NCBI GenBank assembly: GCA_965218585.1
Contig: CBDCLE010000009.1
Location: 32,001-96,000, forward strand
Direction: 5' to 3'
Length of the DNA: 64,000 nucleotides
DNA from: Terriglobia bacterium
Lineage (GTDB): Bacteria > Acidobacteriota > Terriglobia > 20CM-2-55-15
Shown here: in pieces, positions 29,572 through 50,241 of the stretch
Layout: every line of letters begins with the position of its first letter
Position numbering within the stretch: the first letter of the stretch is position 1
Translations under genes and position numbers: made by a program
Notes under the pieces: model-generated
Database searches by the model: none
Told to the model about the DNA's origin: nothing
Seen by the model: only the letters and a program-made list of their open reading frames with translations

Positions 29572-29815
29572 TCTTTCAGGTCTCCAATCTTTATTTAGAT
29601 TTAGACGCCGTGTTCGTAGTCGCGTGCAGCCCTCGAGTGTGATCGAACGTCACACGCCTGTCCAAACTGAACGGCGAGTGTAACAGCGCCTAATAATAGG
29701 TCGTCGAGTCAGCCGAGCCAAGGGAGAGCTTCCTTGAAATATGGAGAGATATATCTATGCCTAAGCCGGCCGGAGTCCGACCTTGGGTCCGACTACCAAT
29801 GGCGCAGCCCTACTC

Positions 29816-31180: not shown

Positions 31181-31275
31181 CCCTACTCCAGGCGTTTTGA
31201 CTATCTGCAGAAGCATCCTTGCTGTAAAGTAAGGCGATTTTTCAGCGAAACTCGTTTCTGTATGGAGGTCCAGAC

Positions 31276-32392: not shown

Positions 32393-33880
32393 TCAGAACG
32401 ATGCCGGGACCACCCGAGCAGCCAGATAGAAGACTACAAGGGAAACCAGCGGAATGATTAACAGCGTAATCGCGATTCCGCCCTTCACCATCCGTCCCAT
32501 CCGCACGTAGCCGCTGGCGAACACCATTGCGTTGTACGGCGTGCCGATGGGCAGCGGAAACGCCATCGAAGCGGCCACGCCGACGGCGACCAACAACGGT
32601 ATCGGATCGATCCCGGCCGAAGAGCCAATGCCCTGTACCAGAGCTCCGACCATCCCGACTGCCGCGATATTTGACACGAAACTGGTCATCACGACGGTGA
32701 ACGTCACCAATCCGAACACGAAGACTATTTCCGAACCTGCCACTCCATTGAAGGCGATGATGCTCTGCTCAAAGAATTGCCCGAGTCCCAGGGTCGGGTC
32801 GGCGAGGGTGTTGCCTAAAGCGAGAGCTGCGGCGATCAATGCCAGAGTTCCCCACTCCACGCCCTTAACAGCTTCATTCCAGGTCATGGCAAACTCGCGG
32901 TTCTTCCAGTCCACTGGAAGAAGAAAAAGAACCGTCGCCATGATGATCGCCGTAACCGACCAACTGAGGTGTGTCGTCACCCAGACGCTCCATGGGTGAT
33001 CTCGTCCACCGGCCAGCAGCAGTGGAAGTACATCCGGAAGCAGCCAGAGCAGCATTGCCCCGATAAACACAAACGCCGAAAGCTTTTCTCCGAGTTTCCA
33101 TGGTCCGAGCTTTTTCAATTCGTCCTGAAGGAAAGACTCAGACAGCCACCGGTCCGGTCTCTCCGGTCGCAGGACATAGTGGATCACCCCGAACATCACT
33201 ACCAATCCAATCACCGACATCGGCACACAGATCACCATCCATTGAAGAAAGCCCACGCGATATCCGATTGAGTCTGCCAGGCCGATCGCGATCAGATTCG
33301 TCGGTGCACCAATCGGGGTGGCGATTCCACCCATCGTAGCGCCCCAGGCGATGGACAGGAACATAGCCTCCGGGTAACGGCTGCCTGGTTCCAAATTGAG
33401 CGTACTGACGAGTCCAAGTGCTATCGAAAGAAACACCATCGTGGTGATGACGTTCGAAAGCACAGGGCTCATGACTGCAGCGCCGACTCCGAATGCCATC
33501 AGGAGACGTCGTGGACTTCCACCGACCAGAGAGGAGCCCGCGATGTGGTACGCAATCCGGCGTGCAAGCCCATGCAACTTCACGGCATGACCAATGATGA
33601 ACGCTCCGAGGATAAATATGACGATCCAGTTGGACCAGGTGCTAAACGCGTCCTCTACCGAAAGAACCCCACAGAGGACGAGCATCGCTAACGCGAAAAG
33701 GGAAGTGGCCGGTATCGGGATTGTTTCAGAGAACCACCATGCGGCCGTCCAGAGGAAAATTCCCAGAGTCCGCATGCCTACAACCGTCACGCCATCCAAC
33801 GGAGGCGACAGGACCGATACAGCAAATAACAAAGGTCCCAGCCAAAGCCCGATCAGCTTCATGCGCTTCCTCCTGGACAA
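32393..33880 (-). CDS. DASS/SLC13 family anion transporter
   Basis: WW..E.IP, SN motifs, GG.ATPIG.PTN and P.GTP.NA. Multiple TM helices. Confidence 0.92.
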   Translation of the reverse strand: MSRRKRMKLIGLWLGPLLFAVSVLSPPLDGVTVVGMRTLGIFLWTAAWWFSETIPIPATSLFALAMLVLCGVLSVEDAFSTWSNWIVIFILGAFIIGHAVKLHGLARRIAYHIAGSSLVGGSPRRLLMAFGVGAAVMSPVLSNVITTMVFLSIALGLVSTLNLEPGSRYPEAMFLSIAWGATMGGIATPIGAPTNLIAIGLADSIGYRVGFLQWMVICVPMSVIGLVVMFGVIHYVLRPERPDRWLSESFLQDELKKLGPWKLGEKLSAFVFIGAMLLWLLPDVLPLLLAGGRDHPWSVWVTTHLSWSVTAIIMATVLFLLPVDWKNREFAMTWNEAVKGVEWGTLALIAAALALGNTLADPTLGLGQFFEQSIIAFNGVAGSEIVFVFGLVTFTVVMTSFVSNIAAVGMVGALVQGIGSSAGIDPIPLLVAVGVAASMAFPLPIGTPYNAMVFASGYVRMGRMVKGGIAITLLIIPLVSLVVFYLAARVVPASF

Positions 33881-34042
33881 TCTTCACCGATGTTGCCCGC
33901 AGAACCAGTGAGTTTAGAGCACTTTTCGAACCCCTGGGAGTCGAATTACCAAACCTCCACAGTCTGTTGAAATTTCTCGACATGATTGTGGGTTTACCAC
34001 ATACCGGACCGGGCTCTTGATGAGTAGTTTAGAATCAATTGA

Positions 34043-34128
34043 GCCTGGGTGGCGGAACTGGCAGACGCACCGGACTTAAAATCCGGAGTCCCTTACGGGA
34101 CGTGTGGGTTCGAGTCCCACCCCGGGCA
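34043..34128 (+). tRNA. tRNA-Leu(TAA)
   Basis: Cloverleaf with GCCTGGG/CCCGGGC acceptor, CCGGA-CTTAAAA-TCCGG anticodon arm, long variable arm and TTCGAGT T-loop. CCA is not encoded. Confidence 0.97.
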
Positions 34129-34234
34129 TTTCATTGCGATTAGTTAGTCACATGACGTTTTTGTCGTTCATCGTCAAATTCGGCTGACTTCGTCCGAACT
34201 ATTCCCGTGGACTCATTGAGGTAGGCTTCCACTG

Positions 34235-34395
34235 CTTGTGCCGCCGCCTTCACATCGTCCTCGTTCGTGATGTTGTAGCGGTCGAAAATCGAACTGGTTG
34301 GTGTCCGCAGATCGCCATTGCGACTCGTTCAGGAACGCTAGCACGGACGAGATTGCGAACACCCGTTCGCCTGAAGTCGTGTGTCCTCAGCGAGA
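34235..34395 (-). pseudogene. Tyrosine recombinase C-terminal remnant
   Basis: HDFRRTGVRNL..MAICGH (box II), then after a frameshift TSSIFDRYNI with the catalytic Tyr. The N-terminal part is absent. Confidence 0.85.
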
Positions 34396-34553
34396 CACGG
34401 TTGGTCGTCTGGGTGATAGCGGTCGCGATCGTGGAGGCTGGCTTCCTTAAGTTCGTCACCAACCTTCTTTCACCCGCCCCGCCTCAAATCGCGTCCAATC
34501 GGCTATATCTCCTTCTGTTTCAATGGAATGCTGCGACATCCGAAGCTCACCGA

Positions 34554-34593
34554 TTCTCAACGTCCGACAAGATCGTTTGCGAGGACTTGAGAA
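34554..34593 (-). repeat. 40-bp cassette-end site, left end of cassette 1
   Basis: Reverse complement TTCTCAAGTCCTCGCAAACGATCTTGTCGGACGTTGAGAA matches the sites at 39185, 40783, 44133 and 48340. Confidence 0.85.
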
Positions 34594-34669
34594 TTTAATA
34601 GCGCCTAACTTACTCCGCTAGTATCCTTTACCGAGTTTTTCACGGCTTTTCCAGCGACACACGTAAATC

Positions 34670-34714
34670 ATGCAATCCGGCGCCAAACTCGGCCACTACG
34701 AAATCCTGTCCCTT
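34670..34714 (+). pseudogene. N-terminal stump of a Ser/Thr kinase gene
   Basis: MQSGAKLGHYEILSL versus MESGTKLGHYEILDL at 44274, with a similar upstream leader (CGACACAC..AAA..ATG). Confidence 0.8.
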
Positions 34715-35033
34715 AAATCCCCCGTGCGACGGCCTGTGGCCACGCGCCAGGTTTACATAACGCCGCATTATCATGACGTTCTCACCGCTGCCATAGTCGT
34801 CGCGCACTGCTTGAAAGGCTTATCCGCAGAATCCAACCACATATAATACCCGCTAGAATCGGAGGTTTTTCGACGGCTATTACGTCTTCTTTGATTAGAA
34901 GTGTGTGGGAACGCTCTGAATCATGAGAGGCGGCTAAAAATTACCCATTGAGCATTATTCCTAGGAAAATGAGCTACTGTTACAAATCTATAATTGATAC
35001 AATACCTGCAATCTCAAGTAGCAGGAGGCTATC

Positions 35034-35342
35034 TTGAAAGTCCAGCTGAAACAGCGAGACTTGGCTATTGTCAGTGATGCACTGATGCTGTTTGTGCCAA
35101 GTGCGCCTCGCCGAAGACGACTTTTTCGTGAAACCTCTCGAATGTTCCAAGAGGCAGAAGCGAGTCAAGATCTCGAAGTGAGCCCGACCCATCTTGAAGC
35201 AGCACTGGATGCTGTAAAGGCGTATGCAAGACAAGTGCCAGAGCACCGACGAAATAGAGTAGAGGATGCTACAGCAACGATCCTTGAGATGCTGTTTCGT
35301 CAACATAGATCCTCATTTTCAGGGGGGAGTTTCACCACGTGA
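35034..35342 (+). CDS. Hypothetical helical protein, similar to an internal domain of 36343
   Basis: AGGAGG RBS before TTG. Aligns by eye with residues ~110-197 of the 36343 protein. Confidence 0.65.
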   Translation: MKVQLKQRDLAIVSDALMLFVPSAPRRRRLFRETSRMFQEAEASQDLEVSPTHLEAALDAVKAYARQVPEHRRNRVEDATATILEMLFRQHRSSFSGGSFTT

Positions 35343-35495
35343 ATTGCTCCCCTGAGGGTCCGGCAGTCTCTTTTTTTGCGTTCAGGCTGTCGGACCCAAA
35401 AGATTTCAGAGAAGGTGTTCTGTCCAGGGTGATCCTCAGAGAAACTGCCTTTTAGAAAACCCGTGATGACTTGCTCGGAATTCATAAGTGAACTA

Positions 35496-36307
35496 GGGCG
35501 TGTTAACACTACGTAGTCCTCGACGATGAGTGCGAAGTGAAGGAAGGCGAGGAACATGACGTCGAGTTTATCGAAACGGGAAAAGATACGCCGAAAACCC
35601 TTGAGTCGGCGGAAGAGCCTCTCGACTTCGTTCCTGCGGCGGTAGAGCACGCGGTCGTATTCCCACGGCTCCAGGCGGTTGCGCTTGGGCGGCACGACGG
35701 GAATCCACCCAAAATCCAGAGCCAATTGGCGGGTCTGGTCGTCCTGGTAGGCACGGTCCATCAGCAGCGGCAGCGGCGCGGGCAACGGCCCCAGGCCGGC
35801 GAGCAGATCGCGGCCCTGCGGGGCGTCGTGCGCTTGGCCGGGCGAGAGCGCAAACGTTATCGCCGTTCGAGCATTCGCGGCAACCAGATGAATCTTGGTG
35901 GTCCATCCACCGCGGGATTTGCCGATCGCTTGCGGACCGTTTTTTTTAACGCTCCCGTGCCGTCGGGATGCACCTTCACAATGGTCGAGTCCATCGAAAC
36001 GGCTTCCACCCGGATGCGCACCAGTTGCTCGCGCTGGAGTTTTTCGAAGACGGCGTCGAGCACCCCGTTCTTGGACCAGCGGTTCATCCGGGTGTAGATG
36101 GTGTGCCAGTTGCCAAAGCGCTTGGGCAGACCGCGCCACTTGCAGCCCTGCTCAGCCACATACAAAATGGCGTTCAAGACCGTCAGGTTCGAAAGACTGA
36201 CGTTGCCCCGCTGACGCGGCAGTTCCGGCTCGATGCGACAATACTGCTCCTGTGTGATCTCCATGCCTGATTATAAAACATTCATGCTCATTAGTGTTAA
36301 CACGCCC
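35496..36307 (-). mobile_element. IS5-family (IS427-like group) element, 812 bp, two-ORF transposase
   Basis: TIR GGGCGTGTTAACACTA in a CTAG context at both ends. orfA 35857-36264 and orfB (KNGPQAIGKSRGG, DRAY, R..VER.F..LK.FR) are joined at an A8 slippery site (~35940). Confidence 0.92.
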
Positions 36308-36342
36308 TAGACAAGGTTCATCATCTGTTCAAATGGAAACTT

Positions 36343-39120
36343 GTGTCCGACACTGGTGCCGAATCGGAACAGAGATCTCAATCGCGCTTCTGGATCCGGG
36401 GCACTAGTAAGGATAAACCCGACGGCTTCGTATTCGAAGCGATTGGTGCGGTTTGCTACATACGGACAGCGAAGCAGTATGGTGTTGACAGTTGGATGGA
36501 AGCAGCCAACACACTTGGGTTGTCGGACATTGATGCCAGAGACTTGTGTGCTGCCTCAAACGACTCGACCTGGCGGACCATGGATGGACGGCGCGAGCCA
36601 GATCCACGATTGCAGTCGCTAAGGGAACAACTGGCGGAAGCAGTTCGTCTCAGAATATATATAGAGCCCAAGTTAGTCCTCCGCTTCAGCCAGGAGGAAT
36701 TGGTTGTTGTCGTCGGTGCGTTAGTTTCATTTCCTATCACCCAGCCTGAACAGGGTCAACCGTATTTGCGGGCACTGAATGCATTCCGAAGGGCAGCCGG
36801 CTTTCAACCCTTCGAGGCGACTCTCGAAAACCTTGAAGCCGCATTACGAGCGCTGGTCTCTCATAGGGACCGAGTGGCTCCCGAGCAACGCGATGCCATA
36901 GAAAGCGTTGCGGCCAAGATTGCCAGTATTTCATTGGCTCAATCTCGACCTAGGGTGGATCGTCAGGCGGATGAAGTATTCATCAACAGGCATCCGATCT
37001 TTCAGTCGAATCTCAATACTTTCGCCTACGAACTGCTTGCCGAAAGGGAAAATGCGACCGGCTATCTCGTCGTCACCCAAACCATCCTGGACAGGTTCAC
37101 AGACCAAGGACTGGATCAGTTCGTGGGCAATCGGCTGGCGTTCATCAGTGTGTCGCAGGGAGCCATTAAGGCCGGCCATTGCGATGCTATGACCAAGGAA
37201 CGCACGATTCTGGAAGTGCTCGACGGCGCCGAACCGGACAAAGACCTGTTCCGCGCACTGACGAAACTCTTCAATCAGGGTCATCGGATCGCTATAGCGG
37301 ATTCGCTCATACGGTGGAGCGACTATCCACTAGCCTCAATAGCGAACGTCATCAAGTTCGATCTTGCGGATCTCGGAAGGCTTGCCATCGAAAACCGTCT
37401 AGAAACCCTTAAGGAAGTTAAATCACAGTTATTGGCGGATCACGTGGAAACTCATGACGATTTTGAATTTGCTCGTGGTGTGAGCTTTGATTATTTTCAA
37501 GGCTCCTTTTTCTGCAAGCCCCACATTACGGGCCAAGTTATTCCGGTCAACCGCCTGGCCACGATGCACTTGCTGGTACGAGTACGAGATCCTGAAGTTG
37601 ACCTTCAAGAACTGGGAGAAATGATCAGCCAGGATTTGCCACTAGCTTTCAAGTTGCTCGAGTTGAGGTCGTTCCAATCGGTGTGTAAAAAGAGAAGGCG
37701 GTGTACGCTTTCGGTGAATCCGAAACCGTAAGCAATCCCGGCAGCAACCGGGAGAAAGGTACACCACCCATGAAGAAGAAGAACATACCGGCATCAGTGG
37801 CGTCAACGAACGCGTATGAAGGTTTGGAGGACTGGGCGCGATCCCGGGTCCAAGTCTGGCTACAGGAGCTGCTCGAGGACGAAGTCACTCAATTTCTGGG
37901 TCGGGAAAAGTTGGAGCGGAGTCCGAATCGACGAGGATACCGGAACGGTCACGGGAAACCGCGACGCTTCGCAATGATGAACGGTACGATGGAGGTTCGA
38001 CGACCTCGGGTTCGAAACACCGCCGAGCGGTTCGAGAGTCAGATCCTGCCGTATTTTCGACGGAAATCGAAACAGCTGGGCGAGCTACTTCCCGATCTCT
38101 ACCTCCACGGCCTGGCCACAGGGGACTTCGAGCAGGCCATGCGCGGACTGCTTGGCGCTGGCGCTCCGTTGTCGCGAGCATCGATCCAACGACTGAAATC
38201 GACCTGGCAGTTGGAGTATGACGAGTGGGTCCAGCAGGACCTGTCCGGCCTCGAGGTCGTGTACCAGTGGGCAGACGGCTTGTACGTGAAAGCGGGGATC
38301 GCGAAAGAGCGAGCGGCATTGCTGGTGATCATCGGAGCCTTGTCAGACGGGCGCAAAGTGCTGTTGGCCTGTGAGAGCGGGCAGCGGGAAAGCAAGGAGT
38401 CCTGGAGCCGCATTCTGCGCAATCTCCAGAGACGGGGCCTGAAGCTGGGACGGCTGACTGTCGCGGACGGTCACCTGGGCATCTGGTCCGCGCTGGCCGA
38501 GCAACAGCCCCAGGGCCAGGAACAACGCTGCTGGAACCACAAGTCGATCAACGTGGTCGATCATCTGCCGAAGACCGAGCAGCCCGCGGCCAGACAGCTG
38601 CTTCATGGGATGGCCTTCGCGAACTCCCGCGCGGCCTGCGAACGAAAGCGGGATCAGTTCGTCCGCCGATATGAGAAGAACTATCCCAAAGCGGGTGAGA
38701 CGCTGTTGCGGGACTGGGACCGGATGATTACTTTCTATGAGTTCCCGAAACAACACTGGGTGCATCTGAGAACAACCAACATCGTCGAGTCGCCTTTCGA
38801 CATGGTTCGCCTCCGCACCAACGCCGCTCGCCGATTCAAGCGTGTCGAGAGTGCAACGGCAATGATCTGGAAGCTACTACGTGTCGCTGAGAAGGCTTGG
38901 CGACACTTAAAAGGATCCGAACTCTTACAAGAGGTCTATGATGGTCAGCAATTCGCTGACGGCATCAGAGTCGTGATGAAATCGAAGGCCGCCGCCTGAT
39001 GACTTTTACACACCTTTTGTAATGACCTCACTCGGCAACCTTACTGGTGCGAAGATCCGAGATCGTTACCTGGATTCGGTAAGCTGGGCTCAAACGCATG
39101 CCGAAGGGCTGAGCATCTGA
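36343..39120 (+). pseudogene. EAL + modified HD-GYP (HDOD) protein (YuxH/CdgJ-like) with N-terminal extensions, broken by IS256
   Basis: R.PIF...AYELL, LADHVET and FDYFQG.FF.KP, then the HDOD start. A C-terminal remnant (LGNLT..RYLDSVSWA..*) resumes at 39031-39120. Confidence 0.8.
37665..39029 (+). mobile_element. IS256-family element, copy 2 (transposase 37770-38999)
   Basis: Same TIRs and length as copy 1. No matching TSD (CTCGAGTT versus ACTCGGCA). Confidence 0.95.
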
Positions 39121-39184
39121 AGAGCTTGTAGATTGTTTGCCATTGGCTGGCGGCTTAGGGGAAGTTAGCGGAGACGAAGATGAC

Positions 39185-39281
39185 GGTTCAAGTCCTGTTA
39201 AATCATCTTGTCGGACCTTGAGAACCCCCGTTTTTAGGCCTTTCTCACTGTCCAACGATGTCGTCTCCCAGGACTTGAGAA
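39185..39281. repeat. Cassette junction: two inverted 40-bp sites (39185-39224, 39242-39281) with a 17-bp spacer
   Basis: Forms a long imperfect hairpin and is homologous to 40783-40880. Confidence 0.85.
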
Positions 39282-39322
39282 TTTAATAGCACCTAACTCA
39301 CTCCTCTAGTATCTTTTACCGA

Positions 39323-39442
39323 AACACGCAGAACGACGCCAACCACATCCACAGCGTGTGGCGCGACTTCAACGGCGATTTCGGCGAGGACCTGCTGGCC
39401 TCCCAATACCGGGCGCACCCGCATCTCGCGCCGGAGGAATAG
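39323..39442 (+). pseudogene. 3' fragment of a DUF3500-like gene
   Basis: [25 protein letters not shown] begins abruptly right after the cassette leader. Confidence 0.65.
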
Positions 39443-39457
39443 AGGAGGAATACAGCT

Positions 39458-40729
39458 ATGTCGATTCGATTCCCAGCACTCGTGATCACGCTACTCGCGC
39501 TCGTGCCCTCGACCTTATGGTCGCAGGCGGCAGACGGCCCCGAGGCGCGCTGGACGATCCTGCACGCCGGCACGGTGCTCCCAGTTCCTGGAGAGCCACC
39601 GCTGACCCAGCAGTCGGTCGTCATCCGGGGCGATCGGGTCGACCGGCTCCTCCCCGGCTATGCGACCGCCGAGTCCCTCGGCCTCGATCCGGCCGGGGTC
39701 GACGTGATCGACCTGACGGAGTATTTCGTCCTGCCGGGCCTCATGGACATGCACGTGCACCTCACCGGCGGAGCGCCCAGCGGGGTTCCGTCCGAGGCCG
39801 CCGACCTGTACCGCCTCACGGGGGGCATCGTCAACGCCCGCCTGACGCTGCGGGCCGGCTACACGACGGTGCGCAACCCCGGCTCGACGGGATGGTCGAT
39901 CTTCGCGCTGCGCGACGGCGTCGAGGCCGGCGATCTCGAGGGCCCGAGGATGTTCGTCGCGGGGCACACGATCCGCAGCTCTGCCAGCGACGGCTCGGGA
40001 TCCTGCTACAGCGTGGAGAGCTGCCATGAGGCGGTGCGGCGCCAGATTCAGATGGGCGCCGATCTGATCAAGGTCTACGTAACCTGCAGCGGGACCGACC
40101 CCTGCGCCCACCCGGACGCGCCGGCCCTCTTCCTCAAGGACGAGCTGGTCGCCGCCGTGGAGACAGCTCGGACGCGCGAGCTGAAGGTGGCGGCACACGC
40201 CCATACGACCGCCGGCATCAACCTGGCGCTGGAGGCCGGGGTCGACTCGATCGAGCACGGCTCCTGGCTCGACGAGCGCTCCTACGAGCTCCTGGGTCAG
40301 ACCGGCGCCTACCTCGTGCCGACGCTGGCAGTGAAGGAGGTCATGCGGCAGAGGCTCGACCAACAAACGCCGGAAAATCGCGCACGGCTCGAGGCCTCTA
40401 TCAGGGAGCACCCGCGGAAGGTCTTCAAAGCTTTCCAGGCCGGCGCCAAGATTGCGTCGGGCAGCGACGCCACGGGCTCGCGGAATGGCGAGAATGCGCG
40501 CGAGCTCGAAACCTACGTCGACATCGGCCTGACCGAAATGGAAGCGATCGTCACCGCGACGGTCAACGCGGCGGCGCTGCTGGGCGAAGCCGACCTGGGC
40601 ACGCTCGAGGCCGGCAAGTTTGCGGACGTCATCGCCGTATCGGAGAACCCGCTCGAGAACATCTCGGCGTTGACCGACGTCGACTTCGTCATGAAGGGCG
40701 GCACCGTCTACGTGACCCTTCGCGACTGA
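39458..40729 (+). CDS. Secreted metal-dependent amidohydrolase (Xaa-Pro dipeptidase-like)
   Basis: PGL.DMHVH, IK (carboxylated Lys position), AAHAH, IEHG, GSD and G.LE.GK.AD. Visibly GC-rich. Confidence 0.92.
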   Translation: MSIRFPALVITLLALVPSTLWSQAADGPEARWTILHAGTVLPVPGEPPLTQQSVVIRGDRVDRLLPGYATAESLGLDPAGVDVIDLTEYFVLPGLMDMHVHLTGGAPSGVPSEAADLYRLTGGIVNARLTLRAGYTTVRNPGSTGWSIFALRDGVEAGDLEGPRMFVAGHTIRSSASDGSGSCYSVESCHEAVRRQIQMGADLIKVYVTCSGTDPCAHPDAPALFLKDELVAAVETARTRELKVAAHAHTTAGINLALEAGVDSIEHGSWLDERSYELLGQTGAYLVPTLAVKEVMRQRLDQQTPENRARLEASIREHPRKVFKAFQAGAKIASGSDATGSRNGENARELETYVDIGLTEMEAIVTATVNAAALLGEADLGTLEAGKFADVIAVSENPLENISALTDVDFVMKGGTVYVTLRD

Positions 40730-40782
40730 AGGTCAGGCATCGCGTCGGCGAGCGGTCTGCGCGGTGACAACCGTGAAATCCA

Positions 40783-40880
40783 TTCTCAGCGCCCGATAAA
40801 TCATCTTGTCGGACGTTGAGAACCACTGTTTTTCAGGCCTTTTTCACTGTCAGAGACGGTCGTTTAACGGGAGTTGAAAC
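40783..40880. repeat. Cassette junction: two inverted 40-bp sites (40783-40822, 40841-40880) with an 18-bp spacer
   Basis: Spacer CCACTGTTTTTCAGGCCT resembles CCCCCGTTTTTAGGCCT at 39225. Confidence 0.85.
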
Positions 40881-41634
40881 TTTGATCGCGTCTAACCCCT
40901 CCCTCAGTATTCATTATCGAGTTTTTCACGGCTCGCTCTCCCAGTCAGGGCCGCAAGCTAAGGTCAGAGGGTGTTACCATCCCTGCTTGCCTGTAACAGC
41001 GATCTATAGCGGAAGGTTCCCATGGCCTTGATCACTCGTCGAGCCTTCCTTGCGCAGTCGGCTCGGGCGGTCGGCGGTGGCCTCTGTGCGTTCGAGGCGC
41101 TACAGTTGGTCGCGTGCGAACGGGGAACGCCAATCGCTCCTTCCATCGGCTATGGGCCGCTCCAAGAGGCCGGTCCCGAGCTGGCGTTACCTACAGGTTT
41201 CCAGTACCGCGTGTTCGGGGTTGAGGGATCGACCATGTCGGACGGACGGCCCACGCCTTCAAGGCATGACGGCATGGCGGCATTCCCACTTCCCAACGGC
41301 AACATTCGCCTTATCCGCAACCACGAGGTCAGCAATGAGCCGCAGAGTGGAGCCGCATTCGGCAACCTCGGGCGGGCATACGACTCGCTGGCGGGCGGGG
41401 GGACCACCTCGCTCGAGATCAACCCCGTGACACGCGAAGTCGTTCGCGACTTCGCGAGCCTCTCCGGGACCATGCGAAACTGCGCCGGCGGACCCACGCC
41501 GTGGCAGTCATGGCTTACCTGCGAGGAGCACTTCGGCGATCAGCGGCAAGGCTATCAGCAACCGCACGGCTATGTCTTCGATGTCCCAGTGTCCGCGGAA
41601 CAGGACGTGCCGGCAGTACCGTTCCGCGCCCTAG

Positions 41635-41756
41635 CAGCCTGTCGGACTAACACCAAATCAATAATCTAAGTCATTCATATGACCGTGTTTACAGTTTCGA
41701 GCTGAAAAGGGCCGTCGTTGAAAACAAAGGACTTACGCCGAAAGTCCGACAGGCTG
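41635..41756. mobile_element. 122-bp MITE
   Basis: 14-bp TIR CAGCCTGTCGGACT, flanked by CTAG on both sides, no coding capacity. Confidence 0.85.
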
Positions 41757-41760
41757 CTAG

Positions 41761-43302
41761 GAGTCTGCGCGGCAGAAGGACCGAAATTGGGCGGGAATGG
41801 ATGGAAGATAGGGCATGCCACGAACTTACCGAGCCTATATTCCAGAACAGAGCCTGCTGATGCCACCGTCGCTGAGCGATTGGCTGGCCGAAGATCACCT
41901 GTCGTACTTCATATCGGATGCTGTGGACGCGATGGATTTGAGCGGGTTCGAACAGAGGCATGGAACTGACGGGCCTGGCAATCAGGCCTTCGATCCGCGG
42001 ATGATGGTGAAGGTGATGATCTATGGGTACGGGACCGGAGTGTTTTCATCCAGGAAGATCGCAGCGAAGTTGAGAGAAGATGTGGCGTTCCGGATGTTGG
42101 GAGCCGAGAACTTTCCCGCGCACCGAACGATCTCGGATTTTCGCAAACTGCATCTTGAGGAGTTCGGGAAGCTGTTTGTGCAAGTGGTGATGATGGCGCG
42201 AGAAGCGGGTTTGGTGAAGATGGGGACGGTAGCGGTGGACGGAACCAAGATGCGGGCGAATGCGAGCAAACGCAAAGCGATGAGCTATCAACGCATGAAG
42301 AAGCAGGAGACCGAGTTGGGTGAGCAGATTCGGGATCTGTTGAACCGGGCGACCGCGACCGATGAGGACGAAGACCAGCGTTACGGCAAGGACCGGCGCG
42401 GAGACGAACTACCCGACGGGTTGGCGACCCGTAAGAAGCGTCTGGCCACGATCCAGGCGGCGATGAAGCGACTCGAGGAACGTCAGATGGCTGCGGACCA
42501 GGAAGCCGGACGGAAACCGGGAGACGACGAACCGGGAAGCGGAAAGAAGGGCAAGCCATTCAAACGCCCCATGGGCGAGCCCAAGCCCAAGGCCCAGGAG
42601 AACTTCACCGATCCAGAAAGCCGGATCATGAAGACCTCCACGGAAGGGTTCCAGCAATGTTACAACGCGCAGGCGATGGTGGATTCCGAGGCCCGGATCA
42701 TCGTGGCGACCACGGTGAGCGACAATGCGTCGGATGTGGGGCAGTTGGAGCCGACTCTGGATGCGGTGAACAACAACCTGGGAGAGTCTCCAGGCCGCGT
42801 GCTCGCTGATGCGGGGTATCGATCCGAGTCGAATCTGGGGATGTTAGAACAACGCCAAATTGATGGGTATGTCGCCATGGGGCGGGAGAAGGACCTGGAC
42901 GATGCCCCCCTCCCGCCACAAGATACCGCGCTTGGTCGGATGACGAGAAAAATGAAATCCCCGTCTGGGCGTGATCGCTACCGGGCCAGAAAGCACATTG
43001 GTGAACCGCCCTTCGGGTGGATCAAATCGGTGCTCGGATTCCGACAGTTCAGTCTGCGAGGTTTGGACAAGGTGACCTGTGAGTGGAACCTGGTGACTCT
43101 AGCAGTGAACTTACGACGGATGAACGGGAAGATCGAATGGGCCTAATCCGGAAAACCGGGACCGCCACCCTTATCACACGGCTTACTACTGGAGTCCGCA
43201 CCGGTCTGAGTTCATCATAACGGCAGAATCGGTCCGGTCGCCTCCGACAACACGATCAAATCCCAATAAATCCAGGTTCTTTCCGCTCTGCCGCGCAGAC
43301 TC
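41761..43302 (+). mobile_element. IS1182-family element (transposase 41815-43146)
   Basis: 16-bp TIR GAGTCTGCGCGGCAGA with CTAG TSD. Motifs SSRKI, DGTK..ANAS, TDPESR.M, ADAGY and EP.FG.IK. Confidence 0.93.
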
Positions 43303-44060
43303 CTAGGGCGGTTTGTTCACGAGGCCGTCGCCGTCGATCCCGCGACGGGGATCGTCTACGAAACCGAAGATCAAAGACAGGCCGGCTTCTATCGCTTCGT
43401 TCCAGACAGGCCCTACCGACCGGGAGAGCGTCCTGATCTTACGAGCGGACGCTTGCAGATGCTGGCCGTGCGGGATCAACGGCAGTACGACGCGGGAACC
43501 GGGCAGAGTCCAAGAGCTGTGCTCCCCGTCGGCTGGCTGGACATCCCCGACCCGGACCCTGTTGGGGAGGCCGTCACGGTGAACGCTGTCTTCCAGCAAG
43601 GATGGGATCAAGGTGGAGCGCGGTTCGCCAATGTCGAAGGCTGTTGGTATGAGGACGGCGCTATCTACTTCGCCTCCACCAACGGGGGCGATGCCGGAGA
43701 GGGCCAAATCTGGCGCCACCGTCCGGGAGCGGACGGCGGAGACCTCACGCTGGTGTTTGAGTCTCCGGGACCGGACGTTCTCAAGCGCCCGGACAACATT
43801 TCTACTACACCCAAGGGGGCGTTGGTCATATGCGAAGACGGGCCCGGCTCGTGTTTCCTCCGTGGCCTGACCCGCGAGGGCGAGATCTTCGATTTCGCCC
43901 AGAACATCGCGAACGACTACGAACTCGCCGGAGCCACGTTCAGCCCGGATGGGCAGACGTTGTTCCTCAACATCCAGGAGGCTGGACAGACGGTGGCAAT
44001 CTGGGGACCGTGGGAGTCTGGCCCTTTCTAGCCGACACTGGGGCCCCACCCTGACATAGA

Positions 44061-44116
44061 ATCAACATCGTCCTGAACTTGTTTGAAGAACTGAAAGAAC
44101 GGGTCCGGTTCCCTAA
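44061..44116 (+). pseudogene. C-terminal stump of a Ser/Thr kinase-PD40 gene
   Basis: INIVLNLFEELKERV versus INIVLNWFQELRERVPVP* at the end of the 44274-48323 gene, directly followed by the 40-bp site. Confidence 0.8.
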
Positions 44117-44132
44117 ACGACCATGAAAATGA

Positions 44133-44172
44133 TTCTCAACGCCTGTTAAATCATCTTCTCGGACGTTGAGAA
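44133..44172 (+). repeat. 40-bp cassette-end site, right end of cassette 3
   Basis: TTCTCAACGCCTGTTAAATCATCTTCTCGGACGTTGAGAA. Confidence 0.85.
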
Positions 44173-44273
44173 TTGGCGAACTACTAAGCGCTGACAGTTT
44201 TCTTGCTAATAAATCCCACCTGTAGTTGAATTTACAAAGAATTTCACAGTTCAGTTAACGACACACTAAAACG

Positions 44274-47200
44274 ATGGAATCCGGCACCAAACTCGGCCAT
44301 TACGAGATCCTGGACCTCCTGGGCAAGGGGGGAATGGGAGAAGTGTGGCGTGCGCGAGACACGAAACTCGGGCGCGAGGTTGCGATCAAAACGCTACCTG
44401 AAGAGTTTGCCAAGGATGCAGATCGGTTGGCACGCTTTGAGCGTGAAGCGAAGTTACTTGCGTCACTGAACCATCCGAACATTGGCGCGATCCACGGGTT
44501 TGAAGAAGACAACGGAACACACTTCCTTGTTCTCGAACTCGTTGAGGGCGACACGCTGGCTGATCAGATCAAGCGTGGGGCGATCCCTGTTGAGGAGTCG
44601 CTGAAACTCGCTCTTCAAATCGCCGAAGCCTTAGAAACAGCACATGAGAAGGGTGTCGTCCACCGTGATTTGAAACCGGCGAACATTAAAGTTACGCCCG
44701 TGGGTAGGGTCAAGGTCCTCGACTTTGGCTTGGCAAAAGCGTTTGCGGAGGCGGGGCCAAGGTCAACGGCGTCTACTCTAACCCTGACAGGAACAGAAGC
44801 CGGAGTAATCCTGGGAACTCCCGCCTACATGAGCCCAGAACAAGTGCAGGGTCAAAAGGTTGATAGGCGAACCGACATTTGGGCTTTCGGGTGCGTGCTG
44901 TTTGAACTCTTGGCTGGAAGGCGCTCCTTCGACGGAAAGACTGTCGCCGACCTTTGGGCTTCGATCCTCAACACCGAGCCGGATTGGACGAGTCTGCCAA
45001 GGAATCTCCACCCAAGAATCCGTCTGATGCTGGAAAGGTGTCTGGAGAAGGAAGCTAGAAGCCGTTATCACGACATTTCGGACGCAAGGGTAGACATCGA
45101 GAAGGTGCTAGCCGATCCGAGCGGCGTGTTTGTGCAGTCCGGTACTGAAGCTGCGCAGGCAGCGCCGCAGGCGAAACTGCCTTGGATTGCGGCCTTCCTT
45201 TTGGGACTGGTCATCGCTGGCGTGGCCGTCTGGAACCTGAAACCCATACCGAATCCTCCCCTCGTCACCCGCTTTGATCACAAGTTATCCGAAACACTGA
45301 GCTTTAGGAATATGGGTCGGTTAGGCATCGCAGTCTCCCCGGATGGCCGTCAGGTCGTTTACAACACCACAGAAGGCGTGTATCTCCTCTCTATGGACGA
45401 ACGGAGGTCGTTCCAATCGGTGTGTAAAAAGAGAAGGCGGTGTACGCTTTCGGTGAATCCGAAACCCTAAGCAATCCCGGCAGCAACCGGGAGAAAGGTA
45501 CACCACCCATGAAGAAGAAGAACATACCGGCATCAGTGGCGTCAACGAACGCGTATGAAGGTTTGGAGGACTGGGCGCGATCCCGGGTCCAAGTCTGGCT
45601 ACAGGAGCTGCTCGAGGACGAAGTCACTCAATTTCTGGGTCGGGAAAAGTTGGAGCGGAGTCCGAATCGACGAGGATACCGGAACGGTCACGGGAAGCCG
45701 CGACGCTTCGCAATGATGAACGGTACGATGGAGGTTCGACGACCTCGGGTTCGAAACACCGCCGAGCGGTTCGAGAGTCAGATCCTGCCGTATTTTCGAC
45801 GGAAATCGAAACAGCTGGGCGAGCTACTTCCCGATCTCTACCTCCACGGTCTGGCCACAGGGGACTTCGAGCAGGCCATGCGCGGACTGCTTGGCGCTGG
45901 CGCTCCGTTGTCGCGAGCATCGATCCAACGACTGAAATCGACCTGGCAGTTGGAGTATGACGAGTGGGTCCAGCAGGACCTGTCCGGCCTCGAGGTCGTG
46001 TACCAGTGGGCAGACGGCTTGTACGTGAAAGCGGGGATCGCGAAAGAGCGAGCGGCATTGCTGGTGATCATCGGAGCCTTGTCAGACGGGCGCAAAGTGC
46101 TGTTGGCCTGTGAGAGCGGGCAGCGGGAAAGCAAGGAGTCCTGGAGCCGCATTCTGCGCAATCTCCAGAGACGGGGCCTGAAGCTGGGACGGCTGACTGT
46201 CGCGGACGGTCACCTGGGCATCTGGTCCGCGCTGGCCGAGCAACAGCCCCAGGGCCAGGAACAACGCTGCTGGAACCACAAGTCGATCAACGTGGTCGAT
46301 CATCTGCCGAAGACCGAGCAGCCCGCGGCCAGACAGCTGCTTCATGGGATGGCCTTCGCGAACTCCCGCGCGGCCTGCGAACGAAAGCGGGATCAGTTCG
46401 TCCGCCGATATGAGAAGAACTATCCCAAAGCGGGTGAGACGCTGTTGCGGGATTGGGACCGGATGATTACTTTCTATGAGTTCCCGAAACAACACTGGGT
46501 GCATCTTAGAACGACCAACATCGTCGAATCGCCCTTCGACATGGTTCGCCTCCGCACCAACGCCGCTCGCCGATTCAAGCGTGTCGAGAATGCAACGGCA
46601 ATGATCTGGAAGCTACTACGTGTCGCTGAGAAGGCTTGGCGACACTTAAAAGGATCCGAACTCTTACAAGAGGTCTATGATGGTCAGCAATTCGCTGACG
46701 GCATCAGAGTCGTGATGAAATCGAAGGCCGCCGCCTGATGACTTTTACACACCTTTTGTAATGACCTCGGACGAACTGGATGCCAGACTTATTCCGGGGA
46801 CCGAAGGGAACCTAAACAACTTAATGTTTTCGCCCAATGGTGAGTGGTTGGCTTACTTGTCTGACGGGCAGTTGCAGAAGATAGCCGTTAGTGGTGGTGC
46901 ATCTGTGGCGCTGGCAGACGTGGTCGGCAACTTTTTTGGTGGGAACTGGCAGGCGGACGGCACGATTCTGTTTTCGGCACAACCGGGACACGGGGCGATC
47001 ATGAGAGTTTCTGCAAACGGAGGAACTCCTGAAACGCTTTTCGAGCTAAGCTCGGAAGGGATTTTTAGTACAGCCTATCCGCAGTTGTTGCCAGACGGAG
47101 ATTCCGTGCTGTTTACCTTCCTTGGTACAGAGGGAACGCAAATCGCAATACAGTCCCTCGGATCTGGGGAGACTGAAGTGCTTTTCGCTGGAATCGGCGC

Positions 47201-48323
47201 TCGCTATGTTCCCACCGGCCACATCGTTTATGGGTTGGAAAGTACGCTATTCTCCGTTCCATTTGACCTAGGCACGCTTGAAACGCTTGGCGGGCCCGTT
47301 CCTGTTGTCGACGGTGTCCTTGGTACCGCCACCGTTTTACAGTTCGGCATATCGGACGGCGGCACGCTTGCTTATATTCCGGGTTCGGCGGTAGCCGCAG
47401 AGCGATCGCTTCTCTGGGTTGATCGAGCAGGCATGGAAGAGGCGCTGACGGCAGAACCTCTCGGCTACGAATACCCTCGAATCTCCCACGATGGACAACG
47501 AGTGGCTGTAGATGAGGCGAACCAATTTGGGGATATCAAGGTCTGGAACTTCGCAAGCAAAAACCTCGTCAGGCTAACATCTGGTGGAGGCGCGGATCTT
47601 TACCCAGTGTGGACGTCGGACGACCGGCAGATAGCATTTGGCTCCCAGCGATCAGAATCAAGCAACGTCATCTATTGGAAATCCGCCAACAACACAGGGG
47701 TTGTGGAGCCGCTCACTCCCGCCTTGGGTAACGGTACGCAACCTCCGAACCCGTATTTCTTTGCTGCTGAGGATCAGGTATTGGTCTTTAGAGAACAAGA
47801 GCATCCAGATACTGGAGACAACATTGGAATCATTTCGTTGGAAAGCGATTCGGAACCAGTTTGGCTATTAGCCAGCCAGTTCGACGAAAGAAACGCAGAG
47901 TTGTCACCAGACGGAAACTGGATGGCCTACCAGTCGGATGAATCAGGTCAACACGAAATTTACGTCCGGCCATTCCCGAACGTCGAAGATGACCTACGGA
48001 GAATATCTACAGCCGGTGGGTTTAGTCCTCTCTGGGCACGAGACGGACAGGAACTGTTTTATATCGAGCCCGGTACGCCACGACACCTTATGGTCGTTCC
48101 GGTCCAGACCGATCCGACGTTTGAACACGAGGTCCCTCTGGAACTGCTGGAGTGGCCTTATTTCTTAGGTAACGAAGGTCGGGCATACGATGTCTCACGG
48201 GATAGCGAGCAGTTTCTCGCTATCAAAGGGAATAGTAACGAAATCGACGAAGAAGATCGTCCACAAATCAACATCGTCCTGAACTGGTTCCAAGAGCTGC
48301 GCGAGCGCGTGCCGGTGCCGTAG
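44274..48323 (+). pseudogene. Hanks-type Ser/Thr kinase with a TM helix and C-terminal TolB/PD40 beta-propeller, interrupted by IS256 copy 3
   Basis: GKGGMGEV, VAIK, HRDLKPAN, DFG, SPE and SPDG repeats. Removing the IS restores LSMDELDARLIPG. Confidence 0.93.
45404..46768 (+). mobile_element. IS256-family element, copy 3 (transposase 45509-46738)
   Basis: Same TIRs and length. TSD GGACGAAC (45395-45402 and 46769-46776) with one extra G on the left. Confidence 0.95.
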
Positions 48324-48339
48324 ATGACCGTGAAATTGA

Positions 48340-48379
48340 TTCTCAAGTTCTGTTAAATCATCTTGTCGGACGTTGAGAA
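48340..48379 (+). repeat. 40-bp cassette-end site, right end of cassette 4
   Basis: TTCTCAAGTTCTGTTAAATCATCTTGTCGGACGTTGAGAA, 16 bp after the kinase stop. Confidence 0.85.
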
Positions 48380-48483
48380 ACGGCGAGCTTCGGAATCCCC
48401 GTCCACTTTTCCCCAATAGTCTGGCTATACTGCCCCACGGCCTCTTGTTGGTTCCTAGCCGCAGTAACAGAGAAAGGACAGAC

Positions 48484-48969
48484 ATGGCATTTGAAGCTCA
48501 ACTTCAACGGCAGATCATGGGACGGTTCGCAACGGGTGTGACGGTGGTGACCACCCGGTATGGCGATGGAGCAATTACAGGGATGACGGCCAATGCGGTA
48601 ATGTCGCTTTCTCTGGATCCGCCGCTTGTTGTGGTCTCAGTGGATAAGAAAGCGATGATCTATGGATGTTTGAACGATGGGCAGTGTTACGCAATCAATA
48701 TCCTGACCCGCGATCAGGAAGATTTATCGACACGTTTTGCCACACCGGGACCGAAAGACTTATCGGACCTGGAGTGGACTGAGTCCCAGACCGGGGCGCC
48801 GATTCTTAAGGACACGCTGGGATACCTAGACTGCAAGTTGACAGGCGTCCTGCCGGCAGGGGATCACGATATGTTTGTCGGTGAGGTTGTCGCAGGTGAT
48901 CTCGGTGAGGGGGTGCCCCTTCTCTTTTATAACGGGAAATATAGGGAGCTTGGGGAACAAGAAGACTAG
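48484..48969 (+). CDS. Flavin reductase family protein (HpaC-like)
   Basis: FATGVTVVT, S.SLDPPLV, GAPIL and AGDH. Confidence 0.92.
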   Translation: MAFEAQLQRQIMGRFATGVTVVTTRYGDGAITGMTANAVMSLSLDPPLVVVSVDKKAMIYGCLNDGQCYAINILTRDQEDLSTRFATPGPKDLSDLEWTESQTGAPILKDTLGYLDCKLTGVLPAGDHDMFVGEVVAGDLGEGVPLLFYNGKYRELGEQED

Positions 48970-49041
48970 TGGTGTTGATATGCCCAATGAATGACCCGCT
49001 CTCAGAGCCCACCGACCTTTACCAGGGACCTCCAATCCCTT

Positions 49042-49100
49042 CCGGATTTAGAATCCGGTGTCCCTCACCGGGCGTGCGGGTGCGATACCCGCCCCAGGCG
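49042..49100 (+). repeat. Displaced tRNA-Leu 3' fragment (att site)
   Basis: 46/59 identical to 34070-34128 with no gaps. Anticodon and T stems can still pair. Confidence 0.8.
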
Positions 49101-49210
49101 TTTCGTTGAAACCGATTGGTCTTATAACGTTTTTTCGTTCATCGTCGAATTCGATTAACTTCGCCTGAAACAGCCTGTGGATCAAGGCGAGTCGTTGGTG
49201 AGGAGGCCGA

Positions 49211-50241
49211 ATGAGGTTTTTCGGGTTGCCGTACAGGGAAATGTTTGACAGACCGATGCGTTTGATGAGAGTTGCGTGTGTCGTCCTGCTGGTGTCCGCT
49301 TGCACTCCGCCGGAAGAAGGAGATAGCGCGGTCGAAGCACCCGCCCAGATCGTGAACATCACCGGTGAGCTGTATGAAGTGCGGTCCGGCACTCACAAAG
49401 CCGTGTTTCTGGTGACGCCGGAGGGAATCATATTGAGTGATCCCACCAACCTGGAAGTCTCCGAATGGCTCAAGGCGGAGTTTGCACGGCGTTTCGATCA
49501 GGCCGTGACGTATGTGATCTACAGTCACCATCACCCCGATCATGTCGCAGGCGGCACGGCGTTTGCCGACACGGCCACGTTCGTGGCGCACGAAAATGTG
49601 ACCAGTGCGCTCGCGGCGCCGCTTCCGAGCAACGCGGCGACCCTGGACCAGAACGGGGACGGGCAGCTCGATCGGTCCGAGGCGACGGCACTCGGGTATG
49701 GCGGGCAGAACTTCGACCGCTATGACCGAAACGGGGACGGCACCATGACGGGGGTGGAGATCAATGCCGAAACACCGGTGCCCGACATCGTGTATTCCAC
49801 AGACATGACGATCACTCTGGGCGGCAGCTCGGTGGAGTTGATGCATCCCGGCCGGGCGCACTCCGACGACATGACGGTTCTATTCTTCCCCGACCAGCGC
49901 GCCCTGTTCGCCGTAGACTTCATGCAGGTCGAGCGTTTTCCGGCGACTCTGGGGGATATCCCCTCGCCAGTTACGTGGATGCGATCGCGAAAGTGCAGGC
50001 CTTTGACTTCGATATCGCCATTCCGGGCCACGGTGACGTCGGGGAAAAGGCGGACGTAGCCCTCTTCCTCGAGTTTCTTCGGGCGCTCGACACTGCAGTG
50101 GCAGAGGGGATCGCCGAGGGGCGAAGCCTCGATGAGATGCGCGAGAACCTGTCTTTTCTCGGCTATGAGGACTGGCTTCGCTACGAGACCCAGCGGGCCA
50201 ACTTGATCACCGAAACTTACGAGCTCTTGACCCGACCGTAG
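49211..50241 (+). CDS. MBL-fold lipoprotein with two EF-hand-like loops, frameshifted at ~49953
   Basis: HHHPDH, AHSDD and PGHG. DQNGDGQLDRSE and DRNGDGTMTGVE loops. Adding one G to the G5 run joins the two ORFs. Confidence 0.8.

Follow-up and report, generated by a model that had tools for sequence, protein, structure and literature searches.

The 64,000-nt window analysed here, the whole stretch of DNA taken from a 4.55-Mb genome (G000; 95% complete) of a Terriglobia bacterium of the Acidobacteriota, carries an island at a tRNA-Leu gene in which gene modules are separated by an imperfectly palindromic site of about 40 bp. The island is bounded at its left edge by a tRNA-Leu(TAA) gene (34043-34128, plus strand; ARAGORN, with an Rfam tRNA score of 59 bits) and at its right edge by a partial tRNA-Leu-like copy with a repeat of the tRNA-distal flank (49042-49169, plus strand; 76% identical to 34070-34198; direct repeat D12), as a preliminary description of the sequence had proposed. 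Seven copies of the site lie between these edges, at 34554(-), 39185(+), 39242(-), 40783(+), 40841(-), 44133(+), and 48340(+), which confirms the positions and strands first reported, and the window holds no further copy: a profile built from all seven finds 83 copies in G000 (E<1e-3), with 7 of the 83 in the window. The sites fall into two subtypes, an R-type with the loop ATCATC, found directly after stop codons, and an L-type with the loop ACGAYC, which is inverted and is followed by a conserved leader of ~70 nt that runs up to a kinase start codon. They delimit co-oriented, mostly single-gene modules.

Four such modules occupy the island. The array starts with an L-type site (34554-34593, minus strand; profile E 2.9e-10), followed by a head remnant consisting of the leader block and the first ~13 codons of a family kinase (34594-34708, plus strand); ~17 other loci align up to 34705-34710, and kinase N-terminal remnants adjoin L sites. 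The cargo of this first module is an EAL-like gene (36343-37663, plus strand; Pfam EAL E 8e-6, under the gathering score), and the module ends at the R-type site 39185-39224 (plus strand), recognized by sequence and profile, as is the L-type site (39242-39281) that, with a truncated leader block, starts module 2 (39242-39322, minus strand). Module 2 carries a captured segment (39317-40763, plus strand) with the 3′ end of a small open reading frame (ORF) and an amidohydrolase gene (39458-40729; Pfam Amidohydro_1, with homology on contig C4), and closes with a short kinase-tail remnant and the R-type site 40783-40822 (together 40766-40822, plus strand). Module 3 opens with an L-type site (40841-40880) and leader block (40841-40940, minus strand), carries a PhoX gene (41022-44031, plus strand; Pfam PhoX, DDE_Tnp_1, and DUF772) interrupted at 41633-43306 by a 126-nt repeat and an IS5-like element, and ends with a kinase-tail remnant and the R-type site 44133-44172 (together 44060-44172, plus strand; direct-repeat families D2 and D8). 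Module 4, first described as lacking a left boundary, has that same R site as its left boundary; the junction is R-only, without an L site, and consists of a linker and leader block (44173-44273, plus strand) belonging to a downstream cluster common to six other loci in three species. Its gene is a family Ser/Thr kinase with a PD40 propeller (44274-48323, plus strand; Pfam Pkinase E 3e-51, PD40 E 7e-19), split by an IS256 element at 45404-46768, and its end is the R-type site 48340-48379 with a 15-nt tail (48340-48394, plus strand; inverted repeat I1). The interval 48340-48394 forms, with 34539-34594, a 56-nt inverted repeat that is 86% complementary and encloses the whole array.

The conserved unit is larger and more variable than the preliminary description had it. 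The consensus proposed there is matched with at most three mismatches by three of the seven sites (40783, 44133, and 48340; 0 expected in 100 shuffles), but the other four are more diverged, and it is the profile that recovers all seven, at E 1e-7 to 3e-10. A length of exactly 40 bp does not hold either, for the conserved core corresponds to about positions 4-40, positions 1-3 vary, and conservation extends past the 40 bp at both ends, with conserved blocks in both flanks. The two junctions at which an R and an L site face each other across 17-18 nt spacers (39185-39281 and 40783-40880) are confirmed, and as single-stranded DNA their hairpins reach -14.1 and -13.8 kcal/mol with z-scores of -2.5 and -1.8, a weak to moderate folding.

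Nor do the sites stand free, as had been supposed: R and L are the 3′ and 5′ flanks of a family of PD40-type Ser/Thr kinase paralogues. This was established on 144 R sites from G000 and from eight array regions of two sister species (G001 and G003, whose sequence was examined in part), of which 70 follow a stretch of 23-134 nt that corresponds to the 3′ end of a family kinase gene and 74 have no detectable tail. The ORF upstream of a tail-bearing R site is usually another gene, which ends 40-350 nt earlier. G000 has ~7 intact family kinases against ~59 R-type sites, together with many kinase N-terminal remnants of 12-70 codons adjoining L sites, and tandem intact family kinases at C2:547-553 kb keep the same R/L/leader layout. 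In most modules a foreign gene (in the window the amidohydrolase, PhoX, and EAL-like genes) stands at the place of the kinase ORF. R sites outnumber L sites about 4:1 (144 vs 34 in the examined set), and an R site is followed by a spacer and an L site (15-18 doublets), by one of several leader families common to all three species, or by unique sequence (95 flanks). The layout proposed for a module begins with an inverted L site, which may be absent, continues with a conserved leader and in most cases a single gene, and ends with a 3′ R site often preceded by ~20-130 nt of kinase tail; such modules would be stacked head-to-tail in islands rich in insertion sequences (IS), here at a tRNA-Leu gene.

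The loop of the R site is also a point of IS insertion. Two elements that we take to be of the IS110 family, from their N-terminal motifs and two Transposase_20 matches in the Pfam scan, carry ORFs of 397 and 383 aa and are each inserted twice at one same point in the R loop (G001:C10:419020, G001:C9:941392, G001:C10:234700, and G001:C10:425330). Because each element has used the same insertion point twice, these elements appear to target the R site; targeting of recombination sites or of repetitive extragenic palindromic (REP) sequences is known behaviour of some IS.

An origin in kinase flanks invites a purely regulatory explanation, in which the sites would be untranslated elements of the kinase family (operators, terminators, or RNA-stability hairpins) that take no part in DNA exchange, and the arrays would have arisen by tandem duplication and decay. 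The position of the sites at gene ends and just upstream of leaders agrees with such a role, as does the layout retained by the tandem intact kinases at C2:547-553 kb. A scan of the region for sigma-70 promoters and intrinsic terminators, however, returned 5 promoter-like and 20 terminator-like matches, none of them at sites or leaders, and the hairpins are weak and have no T-run; an Rfam scan of 33000-50000 at E <= 1 found the tRNA alone, with no match at the sites. The leader might act as a promoter, but as none is predicted there, "leader" is used as a positional name only. The few intact kinases set against many R-type sites in G000 also speak against regulation alone, which would further leave unexplained both the one-sided sharing of flanks and the high identity between species described below, and we regard this explanation as very improbable.

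The distribution of the site is wide within the genus and strongly clustered. In G000, 69 of the 83 profile copies lie within 6 kb of another, where random placement gives 15.9 on average and at most 33 in 1000 trials, and arrays occur on many contigs (e.g., C2:94-112 kb, C4:186-202 kb, and C24:149-170 kb). The scatter across the genome that had been named as an argument against gene capture is present, and the invariance of module boundaries that had been named with it is clearly not what the comparisons between genomes reveal. The genus was compared through five genomes, one per species: G000 and four sister species (G001-G004). A strict search with a 25-nt core (at most two mismatches; reversed pattern as control) gave 47 matches in G000 and 125, 78, 6, and 1 in the sister species, whereas in 36 genomes outside the genus it gave one match each in two, with 0 for the reversed control; the core also occurs in one public record, a Terriglobia metagenome-assembled genome. 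Public metagenome contigs from four runs gave only joints between repeat copies and nothing usable as evidence on junctions. Arrays take the form of same-strand runs of R sites headed by an inverted L site. Of 52 short same-strand R-R intervals, 36 have their longest ORF on the R strand, and 31 are occupied over at least 60% of their length by a same-strand ORF. The contents are diverse, as 119 ORFs of at least 200 aa from the array regions of G001 and G003 match 114 Pfam families, and IS are numerous.

Short palindromes of very unequal copy number recall dispersed repeats, and the sites could be repeats of REP/BIME type or miniature inverted-repeat transposable elements (MITEs), spread into intergenic DNA by a transposase, whether HUH (RAYT-type) or another, and tolerated for the most part in islands, with the cassette pattern as a by-product. 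Mosaic REP clusters (bacterial interspersed mosaic elements, BIMEs) combine alternating subtypes with conserved linkers. The sites resemble REP, BIME, and REPIN-RAYT systems in being 40-nt imperfect palindromes 3′ of genes, confined to one genus with copy numbers that differ greatly between its species, in having two alternating subtypes joined by conserved linkers (17-18 nt and ~107 nt), and in their apparent targeting by IS110-type elements. High-copy hairpins adjoining class 3 Y1 transposases have, moreover, been reported in Acidobacteria in PMC6006769 and add to the case for such repeats. The 40-bp sites differ in being clustered in arrays, strictly co-oriented within them, and placed at homology breakpoints; one of their flanks is a kinase tail of variable length rather than a fixed element end, no target duplications are seen, and the 17-nt "spacer" is a linker conserved across genomes. 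G000 has two Y1_Tnp genes, neither of which adjoins a 40-bp site, and the RAYT-like one (C10:115411-116243) is flanked by a different repeat. On this evidence a spread of the sites as dispersed repeats is judged improbable, and a link of the 40-bp site to the RAYT-like gene was rejected because that gene carries another dispersed repeat family. This second repeat is REPIN-like, with 39 matches to a 15-nt core, mostly in inverted pairs ~62 nt apart (e.g., C1:148702/148765 and C26:71039/71101) dispersed over ~18 other places.

Modules are shared between species with different neighbours. At the tRNA-Leu locus, compared at the species level with one genome each, the transporter gene beside the island is kept, with 76-79% nucleotide and 80-81% amino acid identity across the genus, and the surrounding gene order is not. 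Array segments common to different species, by comparison, are 93-99% identical and always have different neighbours. Flank sharing among the 144 R sites was scored at 85% identity or more over at least 200 nt, upstream from -600 to -90 and downstream from +120 to +650. By this measure 12 R pairs share one flank (7 upstream, 5 downstream) and 0 of 12 share both, so that module content and order change exactly at the sites; at least one downstream-sharing pair is an IS256 insertion and uninformative. A mosaic at G003:C1:1593-1602 kb illustrates the pattern, its adjoining pieces being closest to G000:C13 (99.3% over 2.9 kb), G001:C12 (97.3%), and G001:C10 (93.9%), that is, to three contigs of two other species, and the join between its second and third pieces falls within a single R site. 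Within G001, a 3.9-kb module occurs twice at 99.7% identity, from R to R, with neighbours that differ on both sides.

The first piece of the mosaic (G003:C1:1593848-1596776 and G000:C13:3501-6431) lies inside a module and is not bounded by R sites. Its 99.3% identity, against ~78% for a core gene, suggests an element that was transferred recently; a second copy, 88% identical, is located at C10:116656-119082 and adjoins the RAYT-like gene.

The downstream boundary of exchange is sharp. In five unique downstream-sharing pairs the R copies last differ at site position 27-33 (5/5), the upstream flanks of the same five are unrelated (identity 0.21-0.33), and identity starts by position 34, at the invariant TTGAGAA, which places the onset of downstream homology in the final ~8-13 bases of R. 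A boundary at position 27-34 suggests that R travels with the preceding gene and that the next module starts in or just after the last ~8 bases of the site (GTTGAGAA).

Whole genes have been captured into these modules from ordinary contexts. Over 1447 nt, the amidohydrolase segment of the window (39317-40763) matches C4:189526-190971 at 96.8% identity; the small ORF upstream of the gene is whole at C4 and is cut in the window at the join with the leader block, and the right join falls 34 nt past the stop codon, after which a 17-nt tail remnant and the R site follow. Uninterrupted PhoX homologues are present in G004 (G004:C21:1376770-1378127, 85%) and G003 (G003:C2:4116339-4117940, 83-92%). 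In G004, which has a single strict site, DNA homology runs from ~20 nt before the PhoX start codon to the stop codon, and the G003 gene sits in a module with the same upstream junction as in the window. Entry of genes into the kinase scaffold by way of a transcript-derived copy would fit these gene-sized pieces with short native flanks and the 5′-cut operon fragment in the amidohydrolase module. Reverse-transcriptase ORFs occur in all five genomes, many of them 430-500 aa long, as expected for group II introns, and some of them multi-copy; 13 matches are found in G000 (e.g., C20:71804, C17:204217, C1:61828, and C4:44195). No specific tie of the reverse transcriptases of the five genomes to the arrays was found.

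These features suggest that modules would pass between arrays and species by recombination at R, with R remaining with the upstream gene and the downstream partner beginning in the final ~8 bases of the site (GTTGAGAA) or immediately behind them. Exchange by an enzyme acting in trans is favoured by the sharp downstream boundary, by the arrays of co-oriented single genes, by the sharing across species, and by the repeated IS110-family insertions in the R loop, and attC-like behaviour of R would lead one to expect a site-specific recombinase in that role, as for integron attC. Site-specific strand exchange, any circular intermediate, and the enzyme are inferences. That the 40-bp palindromes are repeats bounding gene modules of a family found across the genus and that a trans-acting enzyme exchanges the modules at R is, as a joint proposition, the account we tentatively favour, with slightly less than even confidence. 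The gene-capture reading of the preliminary description, whose underlying observation is confirmed, is in this way partly supported: co-oriented modules whose content and order change at the sites are seen, and its site-specific recombination is inferred.

Several results weigh against exchange by such an enzyme. Among the four upstream-sharing pairs that were aligned, identity reaches the last base of R in one, within one genome, whereas in two it ends ~35 nt before R and in one it stops farther upstream still, the tail modules being different; a variable upstream boundary is not what a simple attC-like rule predicts. Single sites fold weakly (-2.1 to -7.9 kcal/mol), the stem pair 15-26 is standard in 54% of 155 distinct copies, near expectation and with little compensatory change, and the count of such changes among these copies does not clearly point to selection for a hairpin. 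The number of boundaries counted is small, and the genomes, being related, are not independent of one another. No integron integrase was found in the 95% complete assembly of G000, the best TIGR02249 match scoring 84 bits against a cut-off of 265, and site abundance does not track IntI, since G002 has IntI and 6 sites whereas G000 has no IntI and 47. IS91 transposases are absent from G000, and across the genus their copy number does not follow the number of sites. A recombinase co-occurring with the site, which the preliminary description had suggested looking for, was not found.

The variable upstream boundary is what homologous (RecA-type) recombination or gene conversion would produce between the tail-and-R and linker-and-leader arms (100-250 nt), helped by occasional illegitimate joins, with the palindrome having a regulatory or RNA-end function. 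Under such a process boundaries could fall within the tail, as in the two pairs that end ~35 nt before R, or leave the same cargo with a different tail module, as in the third; R and L are tied to kinase tails (70/144) and heads, the junction blocks belong to families conserved over three species, R variants are partly genome-specific, as gene conversion predicts, and no recombinase need be found. Against it, the crossovers of all five downstream-sharing pairs lie past position 27-33, the extreme edge of the shared block and the place where homologous exchange is least likely to fall. Junctions that involve the 74 of 144 R sites without a tail, or the 95 singleton downstream flanks, share just ~40 nt, and intact genes with 20-90 nt of native flank recur inside the scaffold. 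Homologous exchange is the main alternative, considered possible but rather unlikely.

The search for an enzyme that could act at R covered the window, G000, and the sister genomes. The window was first described as free of an intact recombinase, but it contains four intact transposase ORFs, three of 432 aa in the Mutator/IS256 family (29852, 37701, and 45440) and one of 443 aa of the IS5-like DDE type, plus a DDE fragment. These are IS insertions unrelated to the 40-bp sites: the inverted ends of the elements bear no relation to the site, and cargo genes are cut by them, the EAL-like gene and the kinase by IS256 and the PhoX gene by the IS5-like element. The element in the EAL-like gene (37664-39030, plus strand; Pfam Transposase_mut E 1e-60) has its inverted repeats at 37664-37690 and 39004-39030, the IS5-like element has 20-nt inverted repeats at 41757-41776 and 43287-43306, and an IS fragment or element with a DDE_Tnp_1 transposase lies at 35450-36320 (minus strand; Pfam; ~24 copies in the genome). 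Between the tRNA gene and the array is a decayed, frameshifted remnant of the C-terminal part of a tyrosine integrase (34150-34440, minus strand), an integrase-type peptide spread across two frames whose DNA is 68% identical to C2:80081-80420, which adjoins a weak integrase match. It is followed by a conserved outer flank of the first L site (34463-34553; downstream cluster of 6) of the ~107-nt long-spacer type that elsewhere lies between R and L, 81-84% identical to C2:547229-547319, C9:142211, C5:5856, and C4:202411. The two Xer-like genes of G000 look like ordinary housekeeping copies.

Two of these insertions have wider distributions. The IS256/Mutator element, present in the window at 29815-31181, 37664-39030, and 45404-46768, has ~65 copies genome-wide at ~99% identity, which points to a recent burst. 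The 126-nt segment beside the IS5-like element (41631-41756) has many copies in G002 at 90-97% identity and further copies in G003 and G004, and may be a miniature element.

Integrons, and clusters of attC sites lacking integron integrases (CALIN), provide the closest comparison. As in those arrays, the 40-bp site is a single imperfect palindrome 3′ of each mostly single, co-oriented gene, the arrays carry unrelated accessory genes, R appears to stay with the upstream gene, with the downstream partner beginning at the last bases (G/TTGAGAA), IS110-family elements insert within the site, and three sister genomes encode true integron integrases. The attC core motifs are RYYYAAC and GTTRRRY, and the outer arms of the site, TCTCAAC ... 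GTTGAGA, are one base off this core in each 7-mer, with site positions 1-3 varying; a distant functional likeness of the site to attC may exist on this basis. The differences are several. The integrases of G001, G002, and G003 score 440-458 bits (the cut-off again being 265) and are associated with classical attC arrays (G001:C9:714608-715549, G002:C41:5422451-5423395, and G003:C2:3040327-3041268), and G004 has only a fragment with stop codons; no 40-bp site was found in a 40-kb stretch around each of the three genes (within ~10-30 kb). The integrons of the genus use another attC family of 40-102 nt, some members being only 40-43 nt. A covariance model built from 12 of these attC found four further attC in those loci (E <= 0.007), yet at E <= 10 it found none of the seven window sites, and no 40-bp site in seven array loci searched; membership of the 40-bp sites in the genus attC family was rejected on these grounds. 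Many modules here, unlike integron cassettes, carry their own leader and kinase remnant, an inverted L site heads arrays and some modules, and upstream homology boundaries vary.

The pdif/Xer modules of Acinetobacter plasmids are gene modules bounded by short sites in alternating inverted orientation. The modules described here likewise lie between short sites of alternating inverted orientation with no dedicated recombinase gene nearby, but the 40-bp site has no 11-6-11 XerC/XerD layout, and neighbouring modules meet either at an R and an L that face each other or at a lone R, rather than at one shared site. A dif-like layout was rejected, and the statement that the site matches neither attC nor dif stands as far as the attC family of the genus and the 11-6-11 layout are concerned. 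A single dif-like 28-nt candidate in G000 (C10:37495, minus strand) has 8 mismatches to a dif consensus and shares just a 6-8-nt word with one arm of the 40-bp site.

Non-autonomous transposons such as mobile insertion cassettes and those of the Pack-MULE type hold a passenger gene within inverted terminal repeats and lack a transposase. The units here similarly have inverted ends of ~40 bp around a passenger gene and no transposase, with the subterminal kinase head and tail kept and the interior replaced. Neither an autonomous element with these ends nor target duplications were found, and what flanks the L...R units is conserved linker sequence that recurs at many loci. The arrays also differ from mobile insertion cassettes and MITEs in the ~4:1 excess of R over L, and the IS256/Mutator ends are unrelated to the site.

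Rolling-circle capture by IS91/ISCR elements leaves one precise and one variable boundary and picks up adjacent genes. The precise module start right after R, the variable other boundary, and the pick-up of adjacent genes are reminiscent of it, but G000 has no IS91 transposase, and IS91-type copies near sites of G001 are inserted at differing positions. One such element in G001 (C12:567600-570250) encodes a Xer-like tyrosine recombinase ahead of its IS91-family transposase. There are at least seven more copies in G001 and more than 20 in G002; in at least five of the eight G001 copies a 40-bp site lies 125-325 nt from the start of the recombinase gene, and the insertion points differ. This pair was rejected as the enzyme, being absent from G000.

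Full-text searches of the literature on Acidobacteria REPs, on integrons and attC, and on the kinase tail motif found no description of the 40-bp site or its arrays, the additional files of PMC6006769 excepted. Taken further, the arrays could represent an undescribed cassette system of Acidobacteria, in which a palindrome from a kinase flank would serve as attC, modules would bring their own leaders, whole genes would be captured from ordinary chromosomal contexts by replacement of the kinase ORF, perhaps through a transcript copy, and a recombinase other than IntI would stack modules and exchange them between islands and species; in this extended form the proposal is possible but doubtful.

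Among systems that line up single genes behind short recombination sites, integrons are, to our knowledge, the only one that is well understood. The origin of integron cassettes is an open question. In the present arrays the "site" is traceable to sequence flanking the genes of an ordinary family, and captured genes can be matched to uncaptured copies, the amidohydrolase to that at C4 and PhoX to that in G004. If exchange at R is site-specific, the arrays would constitute a cassette system independent of integrons, the second of its kind, in a phylum that is abundant yet little studied, with natural intermediates of cassette birth. If it proceeds instead by homologous recombination, they would still show clearly how conserved gene flanks can serve as a modular platform for the exchange of accessory genes between species.

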